DNA from: Arcobacteraceae bacterium | Lineage (GTDB): Bacteria > Campylobacterota > Campylobacteria > Campylobacterales > Arcobacteraceae | Direction of reading: 5' to 3' | Assembly (NCBI GenBank): GCA_048268245.1 | Contig: JBLWVX010000008.1 | Span: forward strand, 1-64,000 | DNA: 64,000 nucleotides | The notes under the pieces: model-generated | What the model was told of the DNA's origin: nothing | Databases searched by the model: none | What the model saw: the letters and a program-made list of their open reading frames with translations, nothing else | Shown: in pieces, positions 4,754 to 21,087 of the stretch | Layout: every line of letters begins with the position of its first letter | Position numbering within the stretch: position 1 is the stretch's first letter | Program-made: the position numbers and the translations under genes

Positions 4754-4783
4754 TAGTCACTAAACTTATAACTTTAGTGACTA
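4754..4783 (-). terminator. Hairpin at end of cusA
   Basis: tagtcactaaa / tttagtgacta 11-bp inverted repeat overlapping the cusA stop; no clear U tract. Confidence 0.5.
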
Positions 4784-7700
4784 ACTGTAATATCTTTTAA
4801 CTTATCACCTTTATAAATTGCATATATATAAAAAATCGCAGGAATAATGATAAGAGTTAATAAAGCTGAACTAACCATCCCACCTATCATTGGTGCTGCA
4901 ATTCTTTGCATAACTTCACTTCCTACTCCATCTATATACATAATAGGAATTAAACCACCTAAGATTGCAAATAATGTCATAAGTTTAGGTCTTAGCCTTA
5001 ATACTGCACCTTTATAAATACCATGGAATATATGCTCTTTTGTAAACTCAATTTGCTTTTTAACTAACTCATTCATAGCTTCATGTAAATAAACAAGCAT
5101 TACAATAGAAGTTTCAGCAGCAACCCCTAAAAGAGCTAGGAAACCAACTATTACAGCAATAGAGATATTAAAGTTTAGATAATCTAAATAGAATATCCCA
5201 CCTGTTAGTGCAAATGGCAATGTAAAAAATATTATTATGGTATAAGTAATATTTCTTAATGCAAAATATATCAAAATAAAAATAATCACAAACGTTAAAG
5301 GAATAATATAAGTAAGTCTTTTCATTGCTGACTCAAGATATTCACTTTGTCCTGCCCACTCAAGATAATACCCCTCAGGAAGCTTTATATCTTTTAATAT
5401 ACTAATAGCTTCATCTTTATACTGTTTTGATGAAATACCATTTTTTGGCGTGATATAAATAAAGTTTACATTTAAAGCCTTCTCTGATTTAATCACAGAT
5501 GGCCCTTCTTCATAATATAAATCTGCAAACATTTCTAAAGGTTGAAAACCTAGTTTTGTTTTAACTTGAAGATTTTTTAAAGCTGTAATATCTTCTCTTT
5601 GAGCTGTTTCATATCTTAGACTTATTGGATATCGCTCTAAACCATCAATAAAAGTTGAGATTTTACTTCCTGCAACTCCTAAACTTATAGTTGATAAAAT
5701 ATCATTTTTACTAATTCCATATCTTGATAAAAGCTCTTCTTTTACATTGATATTTAAATAATATCCAGAATTAATTTTATCAGTTGATACAGATAAAGTT
5801 TTATCAAAAGCTTTTAATTTTTGTTCTATTAATCCTGCTGTTTCTTCTAACTGCTCATGACCACTACCATAAAGTTTAATTCCAAGAGGTGTTCTAATAC
5901 CTGTTAAAAGCATATCAATTCTTCCTCTAATAGGGTATGTCCAAGAGTTAATAAGGCCTGCTATTCTTAGTTTTTCATCCATTTCTTGCATAAGTTTTTT
6001 ATATGTCATACCCTCACGCCATTGATCTTGAGGCTTAAAAGTAATAATAGTTTCAATCATTGCAAGTGGTGCTGGGTCTGTTGCACTATCAGCTCGACCT
6101 GCTTTTCCAAATACTGTATCAACTTCAGGAAAAGATTTGATAATTTTATCTGTTTTATTTGTAAGTTCCCTTGATAAATCAACTCCTATTCCATAAGGAG
6201 TTACAGGCATATACATAAAAGTTTGTTCATTCATCATTGGCATAAATTCCCAGTTTTGTTTTTTGTACACTGGGTATGCAGCTATTAGTGTTCCTATAAA
6301 ACCTAAAACTATTAAATATCTCATTCTAAGAGATGTTTTTAAGATAGGAGAATATAAAAGTGTAAAGAATCTATTTAAGATATTTTTATTCTCACTTAGT
6401 ATTTTTCCTTTTATTAAGAACACCATTAAAATAGGCACTAAAGTAATAGATAAAATAGCCCCTGCTATCATGGCAAAAGTTTTTGTAAATGCTAGTGGAG
6501 TAAATAATCTTCCCTCTTGTCCTGTTAAAGCAAATATTGGTAGGAAAGATACCACAACTAAAATAAGTGCGAAAAAGATTGGACGCCCTACTTGTTTTGC
6601 AGATTTTATTATAATCTCTACTCTCTCTTTATTAGAAATATTCTCTTTTCCTTGTAAATACTTGTGAGCATTTTCTACCATAACTATTGTTGCATCTACC
6701 ATTGCTCCAATAGCAATAGCAATACCACCTAAACTCATAATATTTGAACCCATTCCAAATAGTTTCATTAGTAAAAAAGTAATTAAAACAGTAATAGGTA
6801 AAGTAATGATAATAATCAATGCACTTCTAAAGTGGAATAAAAACAAGGCACTAACAATGATAACTATAATAGACTCTTCAATAAGAGTGTTTTTTAAAGT
6901 ATCAATAGCCTTATCAATAAGTGAAGACCTATCATAAGTTTCGACTACTTCAACACCCTCAACCTTTAAAGTTTCTAACTTTTTCTTTACGGCTTTTATT
7001 ACAGCATAAGGATTCTCTCCATATCTTACTACTACTATTCCACCAACTGTATCACCCTGTCCATTTAAATCAGCCATACCTCTTCTATTTGTAGAAGTTA
7101 TGTTTACATCAGCTATATCTTTTATTTTTAAAGGTGTACTATTTAAAGTTTTGATTGTAATATTTTCAATATCAACAACACTTTGTAAATAACCTTTGGC
7201 TTGAATCATATGCTCAAAACCATTTTCTAAAACTATTCTTCCACCTTTTTCATCATTATTTGAAGTAAGAGCTTTTTTTATTTCATCTACACTTAAATCA
7301 TATTGCACTAGTTTATCTTGGTTTAAAGTAATCTCATAGTTTTTTATAAAACCGCCAATTGAAGCTATTTCACTAACCCCATCAACACCTAAAAGTGCAT
7401 ATTTATAATAGTAATCTTGTAGAGTTCTTAACTCATCAAGAGATTTAGTATCTGATTTTAAAGCATACTCATAAGCCCAACCAACACCTGTAGCATCTGG
7501 ACCAATAGCTACATTTACACCAGTAGGGAATGTTCCTTGAAGTTGAGACAACTGCTCCAAAATTCTGTTTCTTGAATCATATAAATCAGTACCATCTTTA
7601 AAAATGATATAAATCAAAGCATTTTGAAAAGAACTCATTGCTCTTACTGTTTCAATATTTGGTAAACTCATAAGATTTGAAATCAAAGGATATGACACTT

Positions 7701-7890
7701 GTTCTTCAATAGTCTTAGGACTTTGTCCTGGCCATTTAACTTGTACAATTACCTGAGGTGGCGATAAATCAGGGATTGCATCAAGAGATGTATTTTTTAC
7801 TGCCCAAAAAGAAGCAAAACTTAAAACTATTACAGAAAACAATATTAAAAATTTATTTTTTATACTATATGAAATTATATTTTCAACCAT
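4774..7890 (-). CDS. cusA: CusA/CzcA heavy-metal efflux RND permease (Cu/Ag type)
   Basis: LDAIPDLS, GPDATGVGW, GIAIAIGAMVDA, DPAPLAMIET, RLRPKLMT motifs; 1038 aa. Confidence 0.95.
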   Translation of the reverse strand: MVENIISYSIKNKFLILFSVIVLSFASFWAVKNTSLDAIPDLSPPQVIVQVKWPGQSPKTIEEQVSYPLISNLMSLPNIETVRAMSSFQNALIYIIFKDGTDLYDSRNRILEQLSQLQGTFPTGVNVAIGPDATGVGWAYEYALKSDTKSLDELRTLQDYYYKYALLGVDGVSEIASIGGFIKNYEITLNQDKLVQYDLSVDEIKKALTSNNDEKGGRIVLENGFEHMIQAKGYLQSVVDIENITIKTLNSTPLKIKDIADVNITSTNRRGMADLNGQGDTVGGIVVVRYGENPYAVIKAVKKKLETLKVEGVEVVETYDRSSLIDKAIDTLKNTLIEESIIVIIVSALFLFHFRSALIIIITLPITVLITFLLMKLFGMGSNIMSLGGIAIAIGAMVDATIVMVENAHKYLQGKENISNKERVEIIIKSAKQVGRPIFFALILVVVSFLPIFALTGQEGRLFTPLAFTKTFAMIAGAILSITLVPILMVFLIKGKILSENKNILNRFFTLLYSPILKTSLRMRYLIVLGFIGTLIAAYPVYKKQNWEFMPMMNEQTFMYMPVTPYGIGVDLSRELTNKTDKIIKSFPEVDTVFGKAGRADSATDPAPLAMIETIITFKPQDQWREGMTYKKLMQEMDEKLRIAGLINSWTYPIRGRIDMLLTGIRTPLGIKLYGSGHEQLEETAGLIEQKLKAFDKTLSVSTDKINSGYYLNINVKEELLSRYGISKNDILSTISLGVAGSKISTFIDGLERYPISLRYETAQREDITALKNLQVKTKLGFQPLEMFADLYYEEGPSVIKSEKALNVNFIYITPKNGISSKQYKDEAISILKDIKLPEGYYLEWAGQSEYLESAMKRLTYIIPLTFVIIFILIYFALRNITYTIIIFFTLPFALTGGIFYLDYLNFNISIAVIVGFLALLGVAAETSIVMLVYLHEAMNELVKKQIEFTKEHIFHGIYKGAVLRLRPKLMTLFAILGGLIPIMYIDGVGSEVMQRIAAPMIGGMVSSALLTLIIIPAIFYIYAIYKGDKLKDITVSH

Positions 7891-7899
7891 GATATATTC

Positions 7900-8919
7900 C
7901 TACCATTCATCATCTGAATCAGAGTCATAAAGTGCATTTGTAATTGCATCTGAATCTAATAAGAATAATGCATTGTTTATTACCTCATCCCCTTCTTCTA
8001 AGCCATCAAGTATTTCGTACTTATAAGAAGACAGTCTTTTTGCTTCAACCTTTACAGGTTCAAACTCTTTTTTTGAAATAGGTTTAAATACATAATATTC
8101 ACTTCCTTTTGATAGAACTGCTGTTTTAGGAAGTGTGAGCATTGTTTTTTGTGTTGATTTTAATTTTACTGTTCCAAACATATTTGGATAAAGTTTTAAA
8201 TCCTTGTTATCAACTATAAATCTTACATCAATACTTTTATCTTTTTCATCAACATTTGGATAAATATAGTCAAGTTTTGTTTTAATAGGAGTAGCTAATC
8301 CATCTACATAAACTGAAGCTTCCATCTTATCTTTTAAAAACCCTAAATCTTTTTGATAAATATTTGCTATAAACCATAGTTTTTCTATATTTGCAAGTTG
8401 TAATAAAAGGTTACCTTTTTTGATGGCACCTTTATCATTTATATTTTTTTGTAAAACTATTGCATTTATAGGTGAGTACACTTTTACACCATTATATGAA
8501 AGTTTATTTCTTTTAATTTTCTCTAACTCTTTTTTATTTATATCTAAAGCTTTTAACTTTTCAAGAGTACTTAAGTAAAGGGGTTTATTAACTTTTTTTG
8601 CGATTTGCAACTCTTTTTGAATTGAGTAAATCTCATCTGAATAAACTTGAAAAAGCTCTTCGTTTTTATTTACTATCATAAAAGTTTTGTTTGCATTTAA
8701 ATTTGTAATATATCCATCAAATCTAGTAACCACATCATCTACTTTTGATTCATCAATTGCCATCTTTCCATAAAAGCTTTTTGTTATTGAAACCTCTTCT
8801 TGTTTTACTTTTACTGTTTTACGATTGAAAAGCTGTTCTACTTCTATAATTTTTGCATTTAAACTTGTAAAAATAAACAGTGATAAAAAAATCGCACTTT
8901 TAATATAATATTTTTGCAT
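7900..8919 (-). CDS. RND periplasmic adaptor (CusB/CzcB-like)
   Basis: Signal peptide, DYIYP, LYPNMF, GLEEGDEV, ALFLLDS; upstream of cusA. Confidence 0.9.
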   Translation of the reverse strand: MQKYYIKSAIFLSLFIFTSLNAKIIEVEQLFNRKTVKVKQEEVSITKSFYGKMAIDESKVDDVVTRFDGYITNLNANKTFMIVNKNEELFQVYSDEIYSIQKELQIAKKVNKPLYLSTLEKLKALDINKKELEKIKRNKLSYNGVKVYSPINAIVLQKNINDKGAIKKGNLLLQLANIEKLWFIANIYQKDLGFLKDKMEASVYVDGLATPIKTKLDYIYPNVDEKDKSIDVRFIVDNKDLKLYPNMFGTVKLKSTQKTMLTLPKTAVLSKGSEYYVFKPISKKEFEPVKVEAKRLSSYKYEILDGLEEGDEVINNALFLLDSDAITNALYDSDSDDEW

Positions 8920-8922
8920 TTA

Positions 8923-10119
8923 TTAGTCCTCTAAAGTATAGTATTTTGTTTTAGCATAGTTTGAAAAGTACTCAAACTTTTCATCAAGGGCTTTTATCTC
9001 AAATGAAATTAATTCATTTAAATTTTTAATTAAAGCTTCTGGCTTAACTTTTGAAAAACTATTATTGTTTTCAAGGTTTTTCTGTATCTTCTTTTTAAGT
9101 GGTAAAATTTGCTTTTTTATAAGTTTATAGTTTAAAAAAGCACTATTCGCACTATTAACATATGTTTTAAGTTCTGTTTGTAAAACTCTTTTTGTATCAT
9201 CAAGTTTTGAAGTGACTTTATTTGATTCAAACTTTGCTTTTAAAGAGTTCAATTTTTGAGTATTATTTATAGTTAAAGGTATATTGACAGAGATATTCGC
9301 ATAATCTTCAAACTTACTATCTCTATTAAAATAAGTCACATTTACTTTAATATCAGGTATTTGTTTTGCTTTTTCAAGCTTTGAAAGATAGATATATTTT
9401 TTTGATTTTATATACTCTTGTTTTAAAATTGGATGTTCATCACTATTCATATTTAAAACTAGCTTTTTTAACTTGTTTATATCATTTTGTGAAATTTCAT
9501 CTATTTTCATATAAGAAATTTGCTCTAGCTTTAAATATAAATTATCAATTAGATTCTTTAGTTTTTGTTTTTGAATTTCTACTTTAAAAAAAAGTACCTT
9601 CGCATCTATTACTTCATTTTGTGTAGTTTTTCCAAACTCATAAAGAGATTTAGATAAAAACTCTAATGTTTTGATATTTTTTTTATACTCATCAAGTAGT
9701 TTTAGTTTGTTTTCTAAAACTAGTATTGAGTAAGCTAACTCATAAATCTTTGCTTTTAGCTTTAACTTTTGATTTTCTAGTACTAGAGTTTTGATTTGCA
9801 TATCTTTTAAAGCTATTTTTTCTTTTATTTCCAATTTCCCATTTGTAGGAATAACTTGAGAAAGCCCAATAAAACTAGCCTGCATTGCTTCTTTATCTCT
9901 TTTAAAAGGCTCATCAAAATGAATATCATTAAATCCAAGACTAAGTACTGGATCACTCCATTTTGAAGCAAGTTTTATATTTTCATTCGCAACTTTAATA
10001 GAGTGATTTAAACTTCTTAAATCACTACTATTTTGTAAACTATTTGAAACAATTTCATCTATTGATACTGCAAAACTCAAAGATGTACATAGAGTTAATG
10101 TTAAAGCTAACTTTTTCAT
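8923..10119 (-). CDS. TolC-family outer membrane efflux protein (CrdB-like)
   Basis: Signal peptide, helical OEP repeats, position in the RND operon. Confidence 0.82.
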   Translation of the reverse strand: MKKLALTLTLCTSLSFAVSIDEIVSNSLQNSSDLRSLNHSIKVANENIKLASKWSDPVLSLGFNDIHFDEPFKRDKEAMQASFIGLSQVIPTNGKLEIKEKIALKDMQIKTLVLENQKLKLKAKIYELAYSILVLENKLKLLDEYKKNIKTLEFLSKSLYEFGKTTQNEVIDAKVLFFKVEIQKQKLKNLIDNLYLKLEQISYMKIDEISQNDINKLKKLVLNMNSDEHPILKQEYIKSKKYIYLSKLEKAKQIPDIKVNVTYFNRDSKFEDYANISVNIPLTINNTQKLNSLKAKFESNKVTSKLDDTKRVLQTELKTYVNSANSAFLNYKLIKKQILPLKKKIQKNLENNNSFSKVKPEALIKNLNELISFEIKALDEKFEYFSNYAKTKYYTLED

Positions 10120-10502
10120 TATATATTCACACTTCCTCTTAAAGTATAAACTTTTCCTTCTTTTGTTTTAAACTTAAGTTGATATTGCCATGTTCCACTC
10201 ATAGGAAAATTAATCATCATTTTATATTTTCCATTTATAAATTTTGCTTTATCCTTATATTCCATATATGGCATACCTGGCATTTCTGGCATAAAAAACT
10301 TTGATTTTACTTTTGCGTTTGTTACTGTTTGTCCATCTTTTAAAAGTTCTACAAAAAGATTATTGTCTCCTGCAACTAAAGATTTTTCAGATGTCATCTT
10401 TATAGTATAACCACCTTTTTCTCCTGTTTGAGAAACTGGTTCTGCACTTAAGATACCAACTGTAAATAACATTGCTACAATTACTTTGAAAATTGACTTC
10501 AT
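10119..10502 (-). CDS. crdA: CrdA-like (YtkA/FixH-fold) periplasmic copper-binding protein
   Basis: Signal peptide, MPEMPGMPYM motif, MSGTW; first gene of a crdA-crdB-czcB-czcA-type operon as in Helicobacter pylori. Confidence 0.78.
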   Translation of the reverse strand: MKSIFKVIVAMLFTVGILSAEPVSQTGEKGGYTIKMTSEKSLVAGDNNLFVELLKDGQTVTNAKVKSKFFMPEMPGMPYMEYKDKAKFINGKYKMMINFPMSGTWQYQLKFKTKEGKVYTLRGSVNI

Positions 10503-10529
10503 TTAAGACTCCTAATTTTTATTTTAGGA

Positions 10530-10562
10530 ATCTTAACTTTTTTATATGGAGTTTGTGTGTAG
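10530..10562 (-). promoter_or_regulatory. Copper-island box plus -10 for the crdA efflux operon
   Basis: Minus strand CTACAC-ACAAA-CTCCAT-N10-TAAGAT. Confidence 0.75.
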
Positions 10563-11711
10563 TTAAAACTTTAATTCAAAAGTAGTTGATTTTTGGTACT
10601 GCGAGCTTACATCTATTTTAATATTATAGTGTTTACAAATATCGCTTACTATATTTAAGCCTAATCCAAAACCACCTTGTTCATTTGTAGCTCTATAATA
10701 TCTGTTGAAAATATCATTTACTTTTTCTTTTTTTATTCCTATACCTGTATCTTTAATAGTTAAAATATTTTCATCTAAAGTAATATAAATTTTTCCTTTT
10801 ACTTTATTATATTTTATGGCATTTGAAATAAGATTATTTACAACTCTAATAAAGTCATCTTTATCAATTTCAAAATAAAAATCTTTTATATCTTTTTTTA
10901 TTTCAATTTTTTTCTTGCTTGATAATGGAATAAAATACTCCAATTGTTCTTCTATTAACTCTTTTAGATTATATTTTTTTATATCTCTATTTTTATCTTT
11001 ATTTTGTAAAAAAATATATGTTAAATCTTTATATATTTCAGATACTCTTTGGGCACTAAGTCTTATTCTTTCAATCTTTTTTTCATTTAAAGTTTTATCT
11101 TCAGTAGACATCATAATAGCACTAATAGGAGTATTTAATTCATGTGTAGTATCTTTTATAAAGTTATTTAACTTAACTCTTTCTTCTTTTATTGGTTTTA
11201 AAAAAAGCTTGCCAAGATAAAAGCCAACAAGACATATAAACAAATAAATAAAAGAAAAAAATACTAAAATATTTAGTTTTAAACTATCTATTTTTTCATG
11301 ATAAGAATTATCTTCAATAGCTAAAAAATAAACCCCTAAATGCCCAAAGGTTGAATCATCAACTAAAATTAAACTTTTTTTTGTTTCAATGACTTTTTTT
11401 TCTAAATTTAATTTTGTATTGAGATTACCAAAAATCTTTTTTTTGTTTTTATCATAAAAAGCTATTTTATAAGTTTTATTTTTTAAAAGATTAGAAGTAT
11501 CAAACTTACTATTTGACATGTGAGCTAAAGTAACTTTAGAAGATAATTTTGATAAGTTGTTTTGCATTCTCGATTTTGTTAAATCTAAATAAAGTCTTTG
11601 TTCATTCTGAAAATAAAAAAAAGCCAAAAATAAAATCAAAATCAAAGAAGAACCTAGAAATAGACCAACAAATCTATAATAAGTACTCTTTTCACTAGCT
11701 GTTAAATCTAT
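10563..11711 (-). CDS. crdS: Sensor histidine kinase, CrdS-like (start uncertain: TTG 11645 or ATA 11711)
   Basis: Two TMs, DTTHELNTPI H-box, NNLISNAIKYN, GFGLGL; frame is open to an ATA with GGAG upstream. Confidence 0.78.
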   Translation of the reverse strand: MDLTASEKSTYYRFVGLFLGSSLILILFLAFFYFQNEQRLYLDLTKSRMQNNLSKLSSKVTLAHMSNSKFDTSNLLKNKTYKIAFYDKNKKKIFGNLNTKLNLEKKVIETKKSLILVDDSTFGHLGVYFLAIEDNSYHEKIDSLKLNILVFFSFIYLFICLVGFYLGKLFLKPIKEERVKLNNFIKDTTHELNTPISAIMMSTEDKTLNEKKIERIRLSAQRVSEIYKDLTYIFLQNKDKNRDIKKYNLKELIEEQLEYFIPLSSKKKIEIKKDIKDFYFEIDKDDFIRVVNNLISNAIKYNKVKGKIYITLDENILTIKDTGIGIKKEKVNDIFNRYYRATNEQGGFGLGLNIVSDICKHYNIKIDVSSQYQKSTTFELKF

Positions 11712-12354
11712 AGCCTACTCCTCTAATATTTGAGATTAAATCCTCATTTAAAATTTTACGTAAATTTTTTATATATGTTCTTATTGTTGCAGGACTTGGA
11801 TTATCTTCATAAGCCCATACATTCATACTTAATTCATCTACACTTACAGCAACATTTTTTCTTTTCATTAAGTATAATAACACATCACACTCTTTTTGTC
11901 TAATGTGAATTTTTTCATTATCTTTTATTATTTCTAAATTATTTACATCTAATTTTATATTTTCACTAATTTCTAAAAGTTCATTAGGAGAAATATTATG
12001 AAGTCTACAAACATTTTTAATTCTTAAATCTAACTCTCTTAACTCAAAAGGTTTTTTAATATAATCATCACAACCCGTTTTAAAACCTTCTTCTACATCC
12101 TCTAATAAATTTGCAGATGTGATAAAAATTGTTGCAGTATTTATACTTTCATCTCTTAGGTGCTTTAATAATTCAAAACCATTTAAAGAAGGTACATTGA
12201 TATCAAATAATAATATATCATAGTTTTTAGAATAAATAAGTTCTAAAGCTTCATTTCCATCATAAGCACAGTCTACATCATGCCCTTTCTCTTCTAAATG
12301 TTCTTCTATTATCTCATTTAGTAATAAATCATCTTCTAATAATAATATTTTCAT
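11695..12354 (-). CDS. crdR: OmpR-family response regulator, CrdR-like
   Basis: Receiver plus winged helix with IRTYIKNLRK; coupled to the kinase upstream of crdA. Confidence 0.78.
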   Translation of the reverse strand: MKILLLEDDLLLNEIIEEHLEEKGHDVDCAYDGNEALELIYSKNYDILLFDINVPSLNGFELLKHLRDESINTATIFITSANLLEDVEEGFKTGCDDYIKKPFELRELDLRIKNVCRLHNISPNELLEISENIKLDVNNLEIIKDNEKIHIRQKECDVLLYLMKRKNVAVSVDELSMNVWAYEDNPSPATIRTYIKNLRKILNEDLISNIRGVGYRFNS

Positions 12355-12396
12355 ATAATTCCTTATGAAAATATTATAACATAAATATTTTTGTAT

Positions 12397-12422
12397 AAAG
12401 AGATTACTAAAGTAATCTCTTT
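12397..12422 (-). terminator. Probable intrinsic terminator after the porin gene
   Basis: aaagagattact / agtaatctcttt inverted repeat. Confidence 0.7.
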
Positions 12423-12426
12423 TAAT

Positions 12427-13623
12427 TTAGAACGAATAAATTAATCTTGTTCTTAGATCCGTTGCATCTTTAGAATCATCTTCATAATCTAAAATCGAAT
12501 AATCCAATTGAGCTTTTAATGAACTATTAAATTTATACTCTAAATTTAATGTAGTTTCATCTAAATCTGCATTAATTGAAGGTAAATCAAAACTTGAATA
12601 TCTTAGTTTTGTTTTTAAATCTGCAAACTTATAAGCAGCTCCAATTTGCCATGAATCTGCCCCAGCTTTAAATGCTTTTGAACCAGCTGTTTTAGTTGTA
12701 GCAGTATAATGAGCATAAGCTCCTTGACCAATTCCTCTAACTACATCATTATCATCATCTGTTGAAGTATATCCCGCAAATAATGAAACATCCGAAATAT
12801 TACCACCAATCTTGAATCCATACATTGAAGAATCATTAGATGATGCAGCATCATAATTTGTATTATAATATTGAGCAGCAATATAAGCAGGTCCTAAATC
12901 ATATTTAGCATCTGCATAAATCCCTACAGCAACATCAACTACATCTGCATATTGTGCTTGAATAGTTAGATTTGAAATAGAATTGTTCTTTAAATAAATT
13001 GTTCTAACACCATCATTACCAATTTTATAGAAATCACCTGGTTCACCTGTTCCATTTGAATCAAAGTTAACAAAAGAGTTATCACTATATGAAGACTTAT
13101 CAGTTCTTGTTTGATATTTTGTAATTAATCCTGCTACTAATGTTGTATCAGGAATATCACTATTAACTAATAAATATGCTTCAAAAGATTCTTTAATAAG
13201 TCTTGAACCTGAACCTGCTAATAAAGGCGTTTTTACATATTGTCTACCACCTTTAAATGTAGTATTGTTATACGTATATTGTAAGTAAGACTCTGATAAT
13301 ACAGATCCTTGTGCGTCCATACTTCCTGCAGTTTTACCATCTTCATCATCTAGACTTGTTACTTGAGAAGTTTGTAGTGTAGCACCTAACACTAATCCAT
13401 TATACGAATCTGTAACAAAATTTAAAGATCCTCCATTTGCCCAAATTGAACTATCATTTTTATTAGCGCCATCAAAATCTTGTGCAAAATAATATGACTT
13501 AAGTTCTCCTTTTAATTTTCCATTTGAAAATGCTTCTGAAATTGAATCAGCTGCGAATAACTGTGAACTTGAACTAAATACTGTTATTGCAGTAATTAAA
13601 CTTAATTTCATTATCTTTTTCAT
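12427..13623 (-). CDS. OprD-like outer membrane porin
   Basis: ATG 13623 with AGGAG SD, signal peptide, KGGRQ...TPL, beta-strand pattern, C-terminal YSF. Confidence 0.85.
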   Translation of the reverse strand: MKKIMKLSLITAITVFSSSSQLFAADSISEAFSNGKLKGELKSYYFAQDFDGANKNDSSIWANGGSLNFVTDSYNGLVLGATLQTSQVTSLDDEDGKTAGSMDAQGSVLSESYLQYTYNNTTFKGGRQYVKTPLLAGSGSRLIKESFEAYLLVNSDIPDTTLVAGLITKYQTRTDKSSYSDNSFVNFDSNGTGEPGDFYKIGNDGVRTIYLKNNSISNLTIQAQYADVVDVAVGIYADAKYDLGPAYIAAQYYNTNYDAASSNDSSMYGFKIGGNISDVSLFAGYTSTDDDNDVVRGIGQGAYAHYTATTKTAGSKAFKAGADSWQIGAAYKFADLKTKLRYSSFDLPSINADLDETTLNLEYKFNSSLKAQLDYSILDYEDDSKDATDLRTRLIYSF

Positions 13624-13660
13624 TTCTTCTCCTAATTTTATTAATTTACAAAACACTGGT

Positions 13661-13693
13661 AGTTTAACTCACAAAGATGTAGTTAACATGTAG
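13661..13693 (-). promoter_or_regulatory. Copper-island box plus -10 for the porin
   Basis: Minus strand CTACAT-GTTAA-CTACAT-N10-TAAACT. Confidence 0.75.
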
Positions 13694-13695
13694 TT

Positions 13696-13728
13696 TTACA
13701 CCTTGGTTCCATCTTTAAAATATATCAT
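13696..13728 (+). promoter_or_regulatory. Copper-island box plus -10 for the orphan regulator at 13756
   Basis: TTACAC-CTTGG-TTCCAT-N10-TATCAT, back-to-back with the porin box. Confidence 0.68.
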
Positions 13729-13755
13729 TCAATTAATATATAAGAAGGAATAAAA

Positions 13756-14409
13756 ATGAAAATACTATTATTAGAAGATGATATTATTCTTGCGGATTTA
13801 TTAAAAGAGTATTTAGAAAAACAATTTTATAGTGTAACTCATCTTTATTCAGGAGAAGAGGCTTTAGAAAAACTCTTTTTTAATAAATATGATTTATTAA
13901 TCTTTGATATAAATGTTCCTGATATAAATGGTTTAAAAGTTTTTGAAAATTTCTCAAATGAAGGATTTAACACACCAATTATTTTTATAAGTGCCTCTAC
14001 AGACTTTAAAGAATTTGAGAAAGCATATAAAATTGGTGCAAATGATTTTCTTAGAAAACCTTTTAAATTAGAAGAATTAAAACTTAGAATTGAATATATT
14101 CAAAAGAACCTTTTATCTTCTAAATTTTTCATTTTAAATGAAAATATTAAATTTGATTTTTATAATATGTGCTTAGAAAAAAAAGGAAAAAAAATAAAAC
14201 TTCCTAAAAAAGAAGCTGAGATAATTAAATATTTTTTAACAAATAGTAATAGAATTATCTCTATAAATGAATTAATAGTTAATATTTGGGATTACTCTAG
14301 TACTCCATCAATTGCTACAATTAGAACATATATAAAAAATATTAGAAAAAACCTTGAGTATGATTTTCTTGAAACGGCTAAAGGCTTAGGATATATATTC
14401 AAAATTTAA
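13756..14409 (+). CDS. Orphan OmpR-family response regulator (CrdR paralogue)
   Basis: MKILLLEDD, FDINVP, ATIRTYIKNIRK; no adjacent kinase. Confidence 0.9.
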   Translation: MKILLLEDDIILADLLKEYLEKQFYSVTHLYSGEEALEKLFFNKYDLLIFDINVPDINGLKVFENFSNEGFNTPIIFISASTDFKEFEKAYKIGANDFLRKPFKLEELKLRIEYIQKNLLSSKFFILNENIKFDFYNMCLEKKGKKIKLPKKEAEIIKYFLTNSNRIISINELIVNIWDYSSTPSIATIRTYIKNIRKNLEYDFLETAKGLGYIFKI

Positions 14410-14411
14410 AT

Positions 14412-14444
14412 CTACACGTTAACTACATTTAAAAAATATATACT
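14412..14444 (+). promoter_or_regulatory. Copper-island box plus -10 for the candidate sRNA
   Basis: CTACAC-GTTAA-CTACAT-N10-TATACT. Confidence 0.75.
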
Positions 14445-14449
14445 TCTTA

Positions 14450-14550
14450 AAAGTCAATTCTTGGCTTTATCATAATGCCGAAGTAAACTCCTAAATTTTC
14501 GAAATCTTTTAAAATGCGAACCTTATACCTTCTCTTCGGCATTATTTTTT
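14450..14550 (+). ncRNA. Candidate small regulatory RNA or structured leader
   Basis: 5' hairpin aagtcaa/ttggctt; perfect 12-bp stem 14472-14483/14534-14545 followed by a T tract; CU-rich loop AAACTCCT; own boxed promoter. Confidence 0.6.
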
Positions 14551-14581
14551 CCACACACAGTCCACATGATTTATATAAAAT
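14549..14581 (+). promoter_or_regulatory. Copper-island box plus -10 for SHOCT-regulator operon
   Basis: TTCCAC-ACACA-GTCCAC-N10-TAAAAT. Confidence 0.7.
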
Positions 14582-14607
14582 AGCATCAAATAAAATAAGG
14601 AGTTTCT

Positions 14608-14823
14608 ATGTTTTCATATATGGATATGAATATGACTATATTTCATGGTCTTACTATGTTTATATTTTGGTTTATTGTTTTTTTTATATTATTTTCATTA
14701 TTTAATAAAAAAGAAGACAAGAATAATTCTATAAATGAGATTTTAAAAAAGCGTTTTGCAAAAGGTGAAATTACAAAAAAGCAATATGAAGAAATTAAAG
14801 AAATACTAATTCAAGAGAGCTAA
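14608..14823 (+). CDS. SHOCT-domain small membrane protein
   Basis: AGGAG SD; Met/His N-terminus, one TM, EILKKRFAKGEITKKQYEE. Confidence 0.85.
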   Translation: MFSYMDMNMTIFHGLTMFIFWFIVFFILFSLFNKKEDKNNSINEILKKRFAKGEITKKQYEEIKEILIQES

Positions 14824-15492
14824 ATGAAAATTTTACTTTTAGAAGATGATATGATTTTAAATGAAATTGTTGAAGAGTTTTTGGTATCTTTAAATTATGA
14901 AGTAGTCTCAGTTTATGATGGCCAAGAAGCTCTTGAAATAATTTATGAAGAAAAGTTTGATCTTTTTTTATTTGATGTTAATGTACCAAATATTAATGGC
15001 TTTGATTTATTAAAAGAATTAAAAAAAGAAAATATAAATACAGCAATAATCTTTATTACTTCAAGAAGCTTGCCCGAGGATTTAAAAATTGGTTTTAGTT
15101 TAGGATGTGATGACTACCTAAGAAAACCTTTTGAATTAAGTGAACTTCAATTAAGAATAGAAAATATAGCTAGATTAAGACAAATAAATACTTATGGTTT
15201 AATTAAAATTGATGAAAATATTCAATACAATTCTCAATCAAAAACTATTATAAAAAATTCTAAAGAATATAATTTATCAAATATTGAATCAAAAATATTT
15301 GAATATATGCTAAAAAATAAAAATAGACCTTTATCAATTGATGAAATTTCTATTAATATATGGCTCTATGATGAAATACCAGAAACGACTACAATAAGAA
15401 CTTATATTAAAAATCTAAGAAAAAAATTAGAGAAAAATAGTATTACAACAATAAAAAATATTGGATATAAATTAAATATAAAAGTAGACTAG
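14824..15492 (+). CDS. Orphan OmpR-family response regulator (CrdR paralogue)
   Basis: Receiver plus winged helix, TIRTYIKNLRKK; no kinase follows. Confidence 0.9.
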   Translation: MKILLLEDDMILNEIVEEFLVSLNYEVVSVYDGQEALEIIYEEKFDLFLFDVNVPNINGFDLLKELKKENINTAIIFITSRSLPEDLKIGFSLGCDDYLRKPFELSELQLRIENIARLRQINTYGLIKIDENIQYNSQSKTIIKNSKEYNLSNIESKIFEYMLKNKNRPLSIDEISINIWLYDEIPETTTIRTYIKNLRKKLEKNSITTIKNIGYKLNIKVD

Positions 15493-15499
15493 GCTACTT

Positions 15500-17677
15500 T
15501 TATATTTTTTTAAGTTTTAGTCTTAGAGAGTTTAATACTACTGTAACAGAACTAAAACTCATAGCAATTCCTGCGTACATAGGACTTAACATTAATCCCC
15601 ATACTGGATATAAAACACCTGCAGCAAGTGGGATTCCAACAGCATTATAAATAAATGCCCAAAATAAATTTTGTTTAACTATTTTCATAGTTTCAACAGA
15701 TAAATTTAAACTTTTTATTATGGAATTTAATTCATTGTTGATTAAAATAATATCTCCCGCATCTTTACTTATATCAGAACCAGAGTTTAAAGTAATACCT
15801 ATATTAGCTTTTTTTATTGCTGGAGCATCATTTATACCATCACCAGCAAACATTACTATTGCATTTTTTTGTAGTTTCTCTATAATCTCATATTTTTCAG
15901 TAGGTATAACTTCACTATAAACTTTTTCAATTCCTAAATTATTTGCAATACTTAATGCAGTAGTTTTATTATCACCTGTTAATAATACAGGAGTAATTCC
16001 TCTATTTTTTAAACTTACAATTAATTGTTTTGCACCTACTTTTAGTTCATCAGCTAAAGAAAAAGACCCTATAGAAAGTTTATTTATTGCAGCTAAAATA
16101 ACTCCATTACCTTTTTCTAATTCTTCTAAATAAAACTCTTTATGTTTTTTATGTATTTCAACATTATTTTGCTCTAAAAGTTTTATATTTCCTATAAAGA
16201 TTTCATCATTTTTATAAAAAGCTTTCACTCCTTTTCCAGGTAAAACCTCTATATTTTCAATTTTTATATCTAAAGGTATTTTTTGATTATCTAAATACTT
16301 TACAACTGCTTTTGAAATAGGATGTTCACTATATTTTTCAAGGGAACCTAATAGTTTAAAATATTTTCCTTCTATATCTGTATTAACAACTGAAATTTCT
16401 CCTTTTGTTAATGTTCCTGTTTTATCAAAAACTGCATATTTTATTTCTTTAATTTGTTCTAATACTTCTGGGTTTTTGATTAAAATACCTTCTTTTGCTC
16501 CTCTACTAACAGAACTAACTATTGCTATTGGTGTTGCCAGTCCTAAAGCACAAGGACAAGATATGATTAAAACACTAATACTTGCAAGTATTGCATTTTG
16601 CACATTTCCTAATATTGCCCATATAATAAAAGTCAAAATAGAAGTTATAATTACTAAAGGAACAAAAACATTAGCAATTTTATCAGCAAATCTACTTATT
16701 GGTATTTGTTTACTTTGTGCATTTTTTAAAAGATCAATAATTTTAGATAAGGTTGTATCATTTGATTCTTTTAATACTTTTACTTTTAAAACACCATTTG
16801 TATTTAAAGTACCACTTAATAGTTCATCATTTTTTTCTTTATAAACAGGTAAAGATTCTCCTGTTATCATTGAAGCATCAATATTTGCTGAGCCTTCTAA
16901 TATCAAACCATCACAAGGAATTTTTTCTCCTGTTTTTACTAAAACTATATCATTAACTTTTAATTCTTTTATTAAAACTTGTTTTATGTCCTTTTCATTT
17001 AATACCAAATTTGCATATTGAGGTGCTAACTTCATCAAATTTTTCAAGAATGTACTAGCTTTTTGTTTGGAGTTTTCTTCTAAATATTTACCCAATAAAA
17101 CAAAACTAATAATGACAGCCGCACCATCAAAATATAAAAATCTTAAATTCTCAGGAAATAAAGAGGGAAAAAATACGACAAATGTCGAATAAAAATAAGC
17201 AGCACTTGTACCTAAAGCTACCAATACATTCATATCATAGTTATTATTTTTCACAGACTTATAAGAGAGTTTATAAAATCTAGCTCCTGTATAAAACTGA
17301 ACTATTGTAGCTATTAAAAATATTAAATAATTATTTGTAGGTTCATTAAATAAACTTGAAAAAGCAATGATAAATATAAGGATAGTTAAAGATATAGATA
17401 TAAAAAAGAGTTTTCTTAATTTTTTAAAAGCTATTAACTGTTCTTTTTCTAAGGCTTGAAGATTTTCCTCTACTTTATATCCAAGATCTTGTATTGAATT
17501 AATTAGTTTATTTTCATCAAATTTATTTTCATCAATCTCGAAGTAACCTTGGGAAGAAGCAAAACTTACCTTAGAAGAAATGACACCTTCTTGTTTATTT
17601 AAAAATTTTTCTATTCCATTAGAACAATTTACACATGTCATTCCTAAAATATTCAAATTTACTTTTTTTTTAGACAT
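15500..17677 (-). CDS. copA: Copper-translocating P1B-1 ATPase
   Basis: GMTCVNC HMA, TGES, CPCALGLATP, DKTGT, SEHP, GDGIND, YN and MSFSS Cu(I) motifs. Confidence 0.96.
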   Translation of the reverse strand: MSKKKVNLNILGMTCVNCSNGIEKFLNKQEGVISSKVSFASSQGYFEIDENKFDENKLINSIQDLGYKVEENLQALEKEQLIAFKKLRKLFFISISLTILIFIIAFSSLFNEPTNNYLIFLIATIVQFYTGARFYKLSYKSVKNNNYDMNVLVALGTSAAYFYSTFVVFFPSLFPENLRFLYFDGAAVIISFVLLGKYLEENSKQKASTFLKNLMKLAPQYANLVLNEKDIKQVLIKELKVNDIVLVKTGEKIPCDGLILEGSANIDASMITGESLPVYKEKNDELLSGTLNTNGVLKVKVLKESNDTTLSKIIDLLKNAQSKQIPISRFADKIANVFVPLVIITSILTFIIWAILGNVQNAILASISVLIISCPCALGLATPIAIVSSVSRGAKEGILIKNPEVLEQIKEIKYAVFDKTGTLTKGEISVVNTDIEGKYFKLLGSLEKYSEHPISKAVVKYLDNQKIPLDIKIENIEVLPGKGVKAFYKNDEIFIGNIKLLEQNNVEIHKKHKEFYLEELEKGNGVILAAINKLSIGSFSLADELKVGAKQLIVSLKNRGITPVLLTGDNKTTALSIANNLGIEKVYSEVIPTEKYEIIEKLQKNAIVMFAGDGINDAPAIKKANIGITLNSGSDISKDAGDIILINNELNSIIKSLNLSVETMKIVKQNLFWAFIYNAVGIPLAAGVLYPVWGLMLSPMYAGIAMSFSSVTVVLNSLRLKLKKI

Positions 17678-17705
17678 CTTATATCCTTATTAATTTCAAT
17701 ATTTG

Positions 17706-17909
17706 TTATTCTATAATTTCAAAATCTAATTCTTTCATTTCTTTTTTAAAAACCTCTTCTTGATTTTTATTTTCGATGTTCACAGAAACCTCTCTAGGTT
17801 CAACTTCTAAATTAACTTCTATTTCTCCAAAATTATTTTTTAAAGTACTTTTAATTAAATTAGCACAATTATTACATGAAATATTTCTTGCTTTATATAT
17901 TTTTTTCAT
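17706..17909 (-). CDS. HMA-domain copper chaperone (CopZ-like)
   Basis: ISCNNC motif, 67 aa, upstream of copA. Confidence 0.85.
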   Translation of the reverse strand: MKKIYKARNISCNNCANLIKSTLKNNFGEIEVNLEVEPREVSVNIENKNQEEVFKKEMKELDFEIIE

Positions 17910-17925
17910 TTAAAATCCTTTCATT

Positions 17926-17951
17926 ATCATGTCTCTTAATTGAGACATGAT
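17926..17951 (-). terminator. Hairpin between small secreted protein and copZ-like gene
   Basis: atcatgtctc / gagacatgat 10-bp inverted repeat. Confidence 0.55.
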
Positions 17952-17959
17952 TAATTTAT

Positions 17960-18163
17960 TTATCTATCTAAATTATCATCTGGATAGATTGTATCTAATA
18001 CACTTTGAGGAATTAAAGATTTTTCAACTTTCTTACTTTCACTTTTATGAAATTCTTTATGCATATTCATACATTTTTCTTTGCTCATATTATGACTATC
18101 ATTTGCATATAAACTTCCTGCTACTAAACCTAAAGCTAAAACTGATAATACTAACTTTTTCAT
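17960..18163 (-). CDS. Small secreted His/Met/Cys-containing protein
   Basis: AAGGA SD, signal peptide ending LYA, mature part SHNMSKEKCMNMHKEFH. Confidence 0.75.
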   Translation of the reverse strand: MKKLVLSVLALGLVAGSLYANDSHNMSKEKCMNMHKEFHKSESKKVEKSLIPQSVLDTIYPDDNLDR

Positions 18164-20820: not shown

Positions 20821-21087
20821 CTAGTATTGTCTTCTAGGTCTTTCTTCTCTTGGCTTAGCTTCATTAACTCTTAAAGTTCTACCTTGACAATCATTACCAT
20901 TTAATGCTTCAATTGCTTCACTTCCAGCTTGTGCTGTTTGCATTTCAACGAAACCAAAACCTTTTGATCTTCCAGTTTCTCTATCCATGATAACTTTTGC
21001 ACTTTTTACTTCGCCAAATTTAGCAAAAACTTCTTCTAAATCCTTATCTGCCATTTGGTATGACAGATTTCCAACATAAATGTTCAT
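20821..21087 (-). CDS. RRM RNA-binding protein
   Basis: IYVGNL (RNP2) and KGFGFVEM (RNP1). Confidence 0.95.
   Translation of the reverse strand: MNIYVGNLSYQMADKDLEEVFAKFGEVKSAKVIMDRETGRSKGFGFVEMQTAQAGSEAIEALNGNDCQGRTLRVNEAKPREERPRRQY

Follow-up and report, generated by a model that had tools for sequence, protein, structure and literature searches.

A candidate small RNA gene in a metal-efflux island of an Arcobacteraceae bacterium, with conserved complementarity to MOMP-family porin leaders

The element described here occupies positions 14412 to 14550 (plus strand) of a 64,000-nucleotide stretch of DNA from an Arcobacteraceae bacterium (GenBank assembly GCA_048268245.1, contig JBLWVX010000008.1, positions 1 to 64,000 of the forward strand); this whole stretch is called the window below. 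The element lies between the gene of an OmpR-family response regulator (RR1) and that of a SHOCT membrane protein, within a cluster which, judging from its genes, would be a heavy-metal efflux island, with copper a reasonable label for it (Table 1). A reading made from the letters of the window (the sequence-only reading) had proposed an unannotated, structured small RNA (sRNA) that is driven by a response-regulator box and exposes a C/U-rich loop. This proved the best reading of the element, which was found in 18 copies in six genera, and we consider it probable, with some reservation, that positions from about 14451 to 14550 (+) are the gene of a trans-acting, Hfq-independent sRNA of ~100 nt that is aimed at a MOMP-family porin.

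Anatomy of the element and its promoter boxes

Inspection of positions 14400 to 14560, together with RNA folding, bore out all structural statements of the sequence-only reading, namely, a box with a −10 hexamer, a 5′ hairpin, a perfect 12-bp stem, and a U tract. The box, designated box A, has the features expected of an OmpR/PhoB-type promoter, in that two direct-repeat half-sites with a periodicity of ~11 bp appear to abut a −10 hexamer in lieu of a −35 element, and transcription is predicted to start near 14450 to 14452. When positions 14440 to 14555 were folded, the minimum free energy (MFE) was −22.4 kcal/mol compared with a shuffle mean of −9.2 kcal/mol (z = −5.8), and 0 of 200 shuffles were as stable. 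The loop enclosed by the stem contains two stretches, designated pairing blocks 1 and 2. Block 1 is mostly unpaired in the MFE fold, with four of its bases (UUCG, 14498 to 14501) lying within a small internal helix. A cmscan search of positions 9000 to 18000 with the Rfam covariance models at E values of up to 10 returned sub-threshold chance matches only, none of them overlapping 14440 to 14555; with no match to a curated covariance model, the RNA was not assigned to MicF or to any other described sRNA family. Two contigs from DNA-type public runs (X3 and X4) cover the element; they differ from it at 14446, 14464, 14471, and 14548, whereas the interval from 14472 to 14547 is unchanged.

The full box-A 16-mer CTACAYGTTAACTACA occurs twice in the whole 2.68-Mb genome, once at the sRNA promoter and once, on the opposite strand, at the promoter of the island porin gene, and the spacing to the −10-like hexamer is 11 nt at both. 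The island porin is also preceded by box A in two other genomes (G002 and G085). Both half-sites were seen by eye in 17 of the 18 copies of the element, the remaining copy, on contig C5 of the present genome (G000), retaining the proximal half-site only. The degenerate pattern YYACA-N6-YYACA was not enriched in the window (3 observed versus 2.3 expected). Most copies of the RNA lie just past the end of a response-regulator gene, and RR1 is the predicted binder of box A. At another site of the genome, C3:117361-117390 (+), a tandem CTACAAAAAAA repeat provides three CTACA half-sites at 11-bp spacing, which may have arisen by chance or be weakly related to box A.

The next gene had also been credited with a box of its own. 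The SHOCT gene, starting at 14608, does have one at 14551 to 14566, directly 3′ of the sRNA stem, but its repeat (box B) differs from that of box A. Box B is kept before SHOCT operons in several genera, and box-B-type repeats (CCACA-N5/6-YCCWCA) occur five times in the genome, both SHOCT operons being among these sites. Another response regulator probably acts at box B, perhaps RR2, the second product of the SHOCT operon (14608 to 15492). RR1 and RR2 are 42% identical.

Table 1. Features of the element and of the surrounding island in the window
Feature	Position	Strand	Basis or remark
ACR_tran pump	4774-7890	-	Pfam
CusB-type membrane-fusion protein	7900-8919	-	Pfam
OEP	8923-10119	-	Pfam
YtkA-like protein (crdA of the sequence-only reading)	10119-10502	-	Pfam
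Histidine kinase	10563-11645	-	Pfam
Response regulator	11695-12354	-	Pfam
Island porin, 398 aa	12427-13623	-	Weak OprD/Porin_4 matches (Pfam)
Second box A, CTACATGTTAACTACA	13678-13693	-	11 nt upstream of a TAAACT −10-like hexamer, before the island porin gene
RR1, OmpR-family response regulator	13756-14409	+	Receiver and Trans_reg_C (Pfam)
Box A, direct repeat CTACA-N6-CTACA, CTACACGTTAACTACA, also written CTACAcgttaaCTACA	14412-14427	+	11-bp periodicity; occupies the −35 position of the sRNA promoter
−10 hexamer TATACT	14439-14444	+	11 nt past box A; TATAAT in most relatives
5′ hairpin, 8 bp including one G-U	14450-14457 with 14461-14468	+	RNA fold
sRNA element	About 14451-14550	+	Between RR1 and SHOCT
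Closing stem, 5′ arm, ATAATGCCGAAG	14472-14483	+	RNA fold; perfect 12 bp with 14534-14545
Pairing block 1, CTCCTAAATTTTCGAAATCTTTTA	14488-14511	+	Loop; antisense at 23 of 24 positions to the Shine-Dalgarno region of the MOMP-family porin
Pairing block 2, GCGAAC (most relatives, GCGCGAAC)	14516-14521	+	Antisense to GTTCGC(GC) in the MOMP-family leader
Closing stem, 3′ arm, CTTCGGCATTAT	14534-14545	+	RNA fold; loop enclosed, 50 nt
U tract UUUUU	14546-14550	+	Putative intrinsic termination point; weaker and C-interrupted in other genera
Box B, CCACA-N6-CCACA, CCACAcacagtCCACA (14551-14566), with −10-like TATAAAAT	14551-14581	+	Differs from box A; predicted SHOCT operon promoter
SHOCT membrane protein	14608-14823	+	Pfam
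Response regulator RR2	14824-15492	+	Pfam; operon with SHOCT
HMA-domain P-type ATPase	15500-17677	-	Pfam

Conservation in the family and covariation of the closing stem

A BLAST search with the intergenic region gave matches of 95 to 96% identity in a congener and of 68 to 70% identity in two other genera. A first covariance model, built on 6 sequences, identified 17 copies, spread over 13 of the 151 family genomes, and a second model (R2), built on these 17 copies, added one credible copy from another genus (genome G007). BLAST and the covariance models together thus gave 18 credible copies in 14 of the 151 Arcobacteraceae genomes and in 6 of 22 genera, with a copy in 2 of the 6 genomes scored in genus g1, 1 of 2 in g3, 6 of 11 in g6, 1 of 2 in g12, 2 of 5 in g15, and 2 of 8 in g17. 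The covariance-model searches applied strict filters to sampled genomes, and a copy that was not found is therefore not to be equated with one that is absent. Outside the family, 140 genomes representing 25 further families of the order gave no match to the model. Two weak R2 matches were left out of the count, one in G023 and one in G166. The latter (locus L208, G166:C189:28839-28950; 32 bits) was dropped because R2 scores there the reverse complement of a genuine MOMP leader and the start of its open reading frame (ORF).

In the alignment, box A, the −10 hexamer, the stem, and two loop blocks, CTCCTAA..TTTCGAAAT and GCG(C)GAAC, are invariant or nearly so, and the flanks vary. Across 15 distinct sequences in the model-fitted alignment, 98.6% of the stem cells are paired and 3 of the 10 pairs have changed on both sides; pairing falls to 31 to 45% when the partners are slid by one to three columns. 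Among relatives, GCCGAAG/CTTCGGC in the stem becomes GTCGAAG/CTTCGAC. The structural conservation on which the sequence-only reading had staked its proposal was thus found. Folded singly, most copies form a 5′ hairpin, the sequence of which differs, followed by the closing stem, of 9 to 12 bp in the proposed fold, around an open loop. The spacers of the conserved core carry indels of 1, 2, and 5 nt, and no open frame is common to all copies on either strand, and we rejected a small-protein gene on these grounds.

The stem in the window starts 63 nt past the RR1 stop codon and is followed by U's, as would be expected if stem and U tract were merely the terminator of the RR1 gene. For termination, however, there is no need to conserve a 50-nt loop and its two invariant blocks, or to keep a promoter between stop codon and stem, and five copies (G000_C5, G187, G190_C43, G090, and G085b) have no co-directional response-regulator gene end in the 70 nt upstream. 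We regard this explanation as very improbable.

The usual order at these loci is RR1, box A with the RNA and its stem, the box-B promoter, SHOCT, a 142-aa DUF411 protein, and RR2; the DUF411 protein occurs in paralogous modules. The position of the SHOCT gene directly downstream of the element in 11 of 15 loci inspected, the weak U tracts of most genera, and the failure to call a canonical terminator would all suit a cis-acting 5′ leader or attenuator of the SHOCT-(DUF411)-RR2 operon, the alternative that the sequence-only reading had itself put forward, in which transcription from box A would read through a conditional terminator made of stem and U tract and the complementarity to a porin would be secondary. 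Yet a separate promoter, consisting of box B and its −10, is conserved between the stem and SHOCT, and the element is retained where a different gene follows (one that is PNPOx-like in g15 and yet another in G110) or where no same-strand ORF of at least 60 aa follows within about 1.5 kb (G187 and G190_C43). In addition, the conserved loop blocks match the MOMP leader and not the downstream gene, and the SHOCT start region holds a low rank for pairing, as given below. These data weaken the attenuator, which we consider unlikely; a dual role, with readthrough into the operon besides an action in trans, may nevertheless exist.

The module is duplicated within genomes, with two copies in the present genome, two in G085, and three in G190. 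The second sRNA copy of the present genome is diverged, lies at C5:4424-4544 (−), and is followed by SHOCT and DUF411 genes; the ORFs just upstream of it resemble transposase genes by eye. In the X4 contig, which stems from a related strain (88 to 95% alike), position 14617 is joined to 14785 with two other letters between them; most of the SHOCT gene is missing there, and the sRNA region is retained.

Complementarity to MOMP-family porin leaders

A family-wide BLAST search returned many matches of 22 to 24 nt to RNA positions 14488 to 14511. The best non-self match of the RNA in its own genome, C2:108656-108679, is antisense at 23 of 24 positions, and 5 nt separate its end from the ATG of a 369-aa ORF with a match to Campylo_MOMP/Porin_4 (Pfam E value of 1.3e-17). 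The product shares 22% identity with the island porin (BLASTP). Its leader of ~90 nt (C2:108590-108684; locus L010, about 1435-1529) also carries GTTCGCGC, the complement of block 2, ~45 nt upstream of the Shine-Dalgarno (SD) sequence. The layout of the leader, an outer stem followed by GUUCGCGCG and then by AGAUUUCGAAAUUUUAGGAG, is conserved across genera, and the leader matched no Rfam family. In the modeled fold, the conserved outer stem (CCGGA/UCCGG or UCGGA/UCCGA) suggests that GUUCGCGC is left in an internal loop, and the leader may have a regulatory or stabilizing role in its own right. Since the target leader is on contig C2 and the RNA genes are on C8 and C5, the RNA is not a cis-encoded antisense transcript. 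Conserved complementarity to a start region encoded elsewhere is what a trans-encoded sRNA would be expected to show, with the shuffle controls for it being moderate.

When 4,910 SD-preceded start regions of the genome were scanned with RNAduplex, the MOMP-family leader ranked first for both RNA copies. For the window copy the energy was −36.5 kcal/mol, with the next start region at −27.4 kcal/mol and a mean of −12.9 kcal/mol (standard deviation, 3.7); the C5 copy pairs better, at −44.2 kcal/mol with the next at −30.9 kcal/mol. The sequence-only reading had tentatively proposed crdA, the island porin, and the SHOCT gene as targets of feedback control. Complementarity to these three does exist, but it is of a generic anti-SD kind and their start regions rank 1681, 1825, and 3336 of 4,910, respectively, i.e., with the background, and they were set aside as targets.

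The comparison was then extended to the MOMP leaders of 11 genomes, with 14 RNA copies each paired with the leader of its own genome; G191 (same as G189), G085b (loop same as that of G085a), and G090 (loop same as that of G085a; leader not fetched) were left out. All 14 own pairs gave energies between −28.9 and −50.6 kcal/mol, with z values of −4.7 to −11.1 (200 shuffles each), and the longest helices were 10 to 23 nt in 13 copies, i.e., in the 14 without G182, a duplicate of G019. Since RNA and leader are each conserved, much of the agreement stems from inheritance, and the separate events are the differences of G110, g17, and g1/g6 only. In G110, both sides have changed: the leader has GGTCGCGC in place of GTTCGCGC, the RNA has GCGCGACC in place of GCGCGAAC, and the two form a 14-nt block-2 helix and a 21-nt helix over the SD. 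In g17, the leader is without the SD-proximal motif TTTCGAAATTTTAGGAG and the RNA is without its antisense; the g17 RNA carries instead a perfect 15-nt complement of the ATG and the 12 nt that follow it, and forms an 11-nt helix through block 2. In G085, a member of g17, the exact 15-mer occurs at three sites only, these being the MOMP start and the two sRNA genes. Between g1 and g6 the two sides differ in step (UAAAAG/CUUUUA versus UAAAG/CUUUA).

When two mismatches or fewer were allowed, 80 of 184 family genomes, spread over 12 of 22 genera, had the leader motif, these matches not all having been checked for a downstream porin. It is present in 41 of the 44 g10 genomes, a genus in which no sRNA was found; second leader-motif matches in g10, considered as possible sRNA genes, were traced to the 3′ end of a protein-coding gene. 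In G188, G189, and G191 the sole match of the motif is the sRNA gene itself.

Read in reverse complement, the element resembles a MOMP leader that has lost an internal piece, and R2 scores the reverse complement of the genuine leader in G166. Together with the duplication of the modules and the transposase-like ORFs beside the C5 copy, this resemblance would also suit a nonfunctional relic at the DNA level, i.e., an inverted partial duplication of the porin leader that moved with the module, or else a mimic of the leader on the minus strand with no regulatory RNA on the plus strand. A relic would not be expected to follow lineage-specific changes in the leader, as the RNA does in G110 and g17, and what is conserved over six genera comprises box A and the −10, both oriented, as well as a covarying stem. 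As for the mimic, no U tract follows the stem on the minus strand, and the short open frames of that strand are not conserved, G187 having none of at least 18 codons. We therefore judge a relic or a mimic to be quite improbable. The scoring of the reversed G166 leader is a hint that an inverted copy of the leader gave rise to the sRNA, and an origin from the leader of its own target is likely. A fuller version of this history is tentative and in our view possible rather than probable: a duplicating metal module would carry its own riboregulator, born by the capture of an inverted piece of the host's porin leader, which silences the core porin while the module supplies the replacement and which tracks the evolution of the leader, the seed having moved from the SD to the start codon in one genus.

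Several results weigh against an sRNA aimed at the MOMP-family porin. A scan for the generic sigma-70 consensus, which includes a −35 element that this promoter is without, did not call the promoter, and a scan for canonical terminators called none, the loop being larger than the definition in the scan allows; a 50-nt loop is atypical of an intrinsic terminator, and the U tract is short and C-interrupted in most genera. Of six public runs that a search returned, one is certain to be RNA; available as contigs, it spans only 14851 to 15065, outside 14440 to 14555, and is uninformative on expression. Of three shuffles of the window loop, with best-in-genome energies of −32.0, −38.6, and −29.9 kcal/mol, one beat the real −36.5 kcal/mol, and shuffling the 101-nt RNA 200 times gave three sequences with a genomic match of at least the observed 40.1 bits, so that the match within this one genome is suggestive and not decisive, with moderate statistics. 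In the energy matrix the own pairs were not uniformly better than cross-genome pairs, and copies and leaders are related by descent, which makes agreement among close genomes nonindependent. The leader motif is found in 80 of 184 genomes and the credible sRNA in 14 of 151, and the conservation of the leader is therefore independent of the sRNA, the leader being older and more widespread. Finally, we infer transcription, regulator, signal, and repressive outcome from the sequence, and for the regulator, the metal, and the repression this, too, counts against the proposal. None of the rival explanations accounts jointly for the orientation of the promoter, the covariation of the stem, and the way in which the RNA follows lineage-specific changes in the leader.

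A proposed porin switch and comparable systems

For the sRNA, we propose the following mechanism. An OmpR-family regulator of the island, probably RR1, would bind CTACA-N6-CTACA in place of a −35 element and thereby activate two promoters, those of the island porin gene and of the sRNA. The transcript would fold into the 5′ hairpin and the long-range stem that presents the mostly single-stranded 50-nt loop, and would end at the closing stem and U tract. Block 1 would pair over the SD of the MOMP-family mRNA, or in g17 over the start codon and codons 2 to 5, and block 2 with GUUCGCGC ~45 nt upstream of the SD. The pairing would occlude the ribosome-binding site and so repress translation of the MOMP-family porin, a mode of repression that is suggested by analogy with MicF-type RNAs, which occlude the SD or the start codon. 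Because the sRNA and the island porin share box A, one signal, presumably metal stress of the Cu/Ag type, would swap the general porin for the island porin, turning the former off and the latter on.

A search of the present genome (99.28% complete) for Hfq with PF17209 gave no match, the same search matching controls in 5 of 14 named genomes, and the RNA was accordingly not classed as an Hfq-dependent sRNA. The absence of Hfq fits the long (15- to 23-nt) pairing at two sites. To our knowledge, Hfq is missing from the phylum, and clear targets are known for few of its sRNAs.

The closest likeness in organization is to the MicF system of Enterobacteria, where micF and ompC are both driven by an OmpR-type regulator. 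MicF-type sRNAs cover the ribosome-binding site or the start codon of a general porin mRNA by base pairing and so block its translation, as described in PMC7355843. In both systems the sRNA would adjoin the gene of an alternative porin and be aimed at the mRNA of a general one, and the presence of the same box before island porin and sRNA resembles the control of micF and ompC by OmpR. The Arcobacteraceae RNA differs in showing no homology to MicF (no Rfam match), in the absence of Hfq, and in its longer pairing through two blocks; it is encoded in a metal-efflux island, its regulation is predicted, and its signal would be a metal rather than osmolarity.

InvR of Salmonella is an island-encoded sRNA that represses the core porin OmpD, is Hfq dependent, and is controlled by SPI-1/HilD. 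The likeness here would be that of an sRNA from an accessory cluster, under the cluster's own regulator, aimed at an abundant porin of the core genome; the present RNA, in contrast, shows no homology to InvR and belongs to a metal-resistance cluster of which a genome may carry as many as three copies. RepG and NikS of Helicobacter pylori and sRNAs of Campylobacter jejuni are Hfq independent with C/U-rich loops, and NikS is metal regulated. The present RNA shares with RepG and NikS the phylum, the predicted independence of Hfq, and the C/U-rich loop; its model, however, had no match outside one family (0 of 140 genomes from others), and the RNA shows no homology to the sRNAs named and would address a porin leader through 15- to 23-nt helices and not a G-repeat.

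In Pseudomonas aeruginosa, the Zn- and Cu-sensing two-component systems CzcRS and CopRS lower the level of the porin OprD and induce efflux, and the control of OprD includes a posttranscriptional layer that requires Hfq (abstract of PMC5083921). No dedicated sRNA is named in that abstract, and control extends to the oprD promoter, on which the regulator also acts; for the present locus we predict a dedicated sRNA of the antisense type, in a genome without Hfq. A full-text literature search, to the extent of the text it returned, gave no description of a porin-controlling sRNA in Arcobacteraceae or of a MOMP-targeting sRNA in Campylobacter. PMC6429828 presents a screen of intergenic regions of Arcobacter sp. 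L, and its table S1d could list a related region. We lean toward the view that the element represents a new sRNA family of a well-known functional kind.

If the proposal is correct, metal sensing would be linked to outer-membrane permeability via RNA, with a bearing on metal uptake and perhaps on antibiotic uptake, and the porin-switch logic of OmpR/MicF would have evolved independently. It would also document the origin of an sRNA from the leader of its own target, and, should the capture history hold, the locus would offer a natural, datable sRNA birth with subsequent coevolution of sRNA and target in a lineage without Hfq. With its recognizable regulator box, its two-block interaction with the leader, and the natural compensatory variants in G110 and g17, the locus provides a testable pair.

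Elsewhere in the window, at 20821 to 21087 (−), an 88-aa protein was found to consist of a single RRM_1 motif (Pfam E value of 1.8e-21) and is, in this genome without Hfq, a candidate general RNA-binding or chaperone protein.

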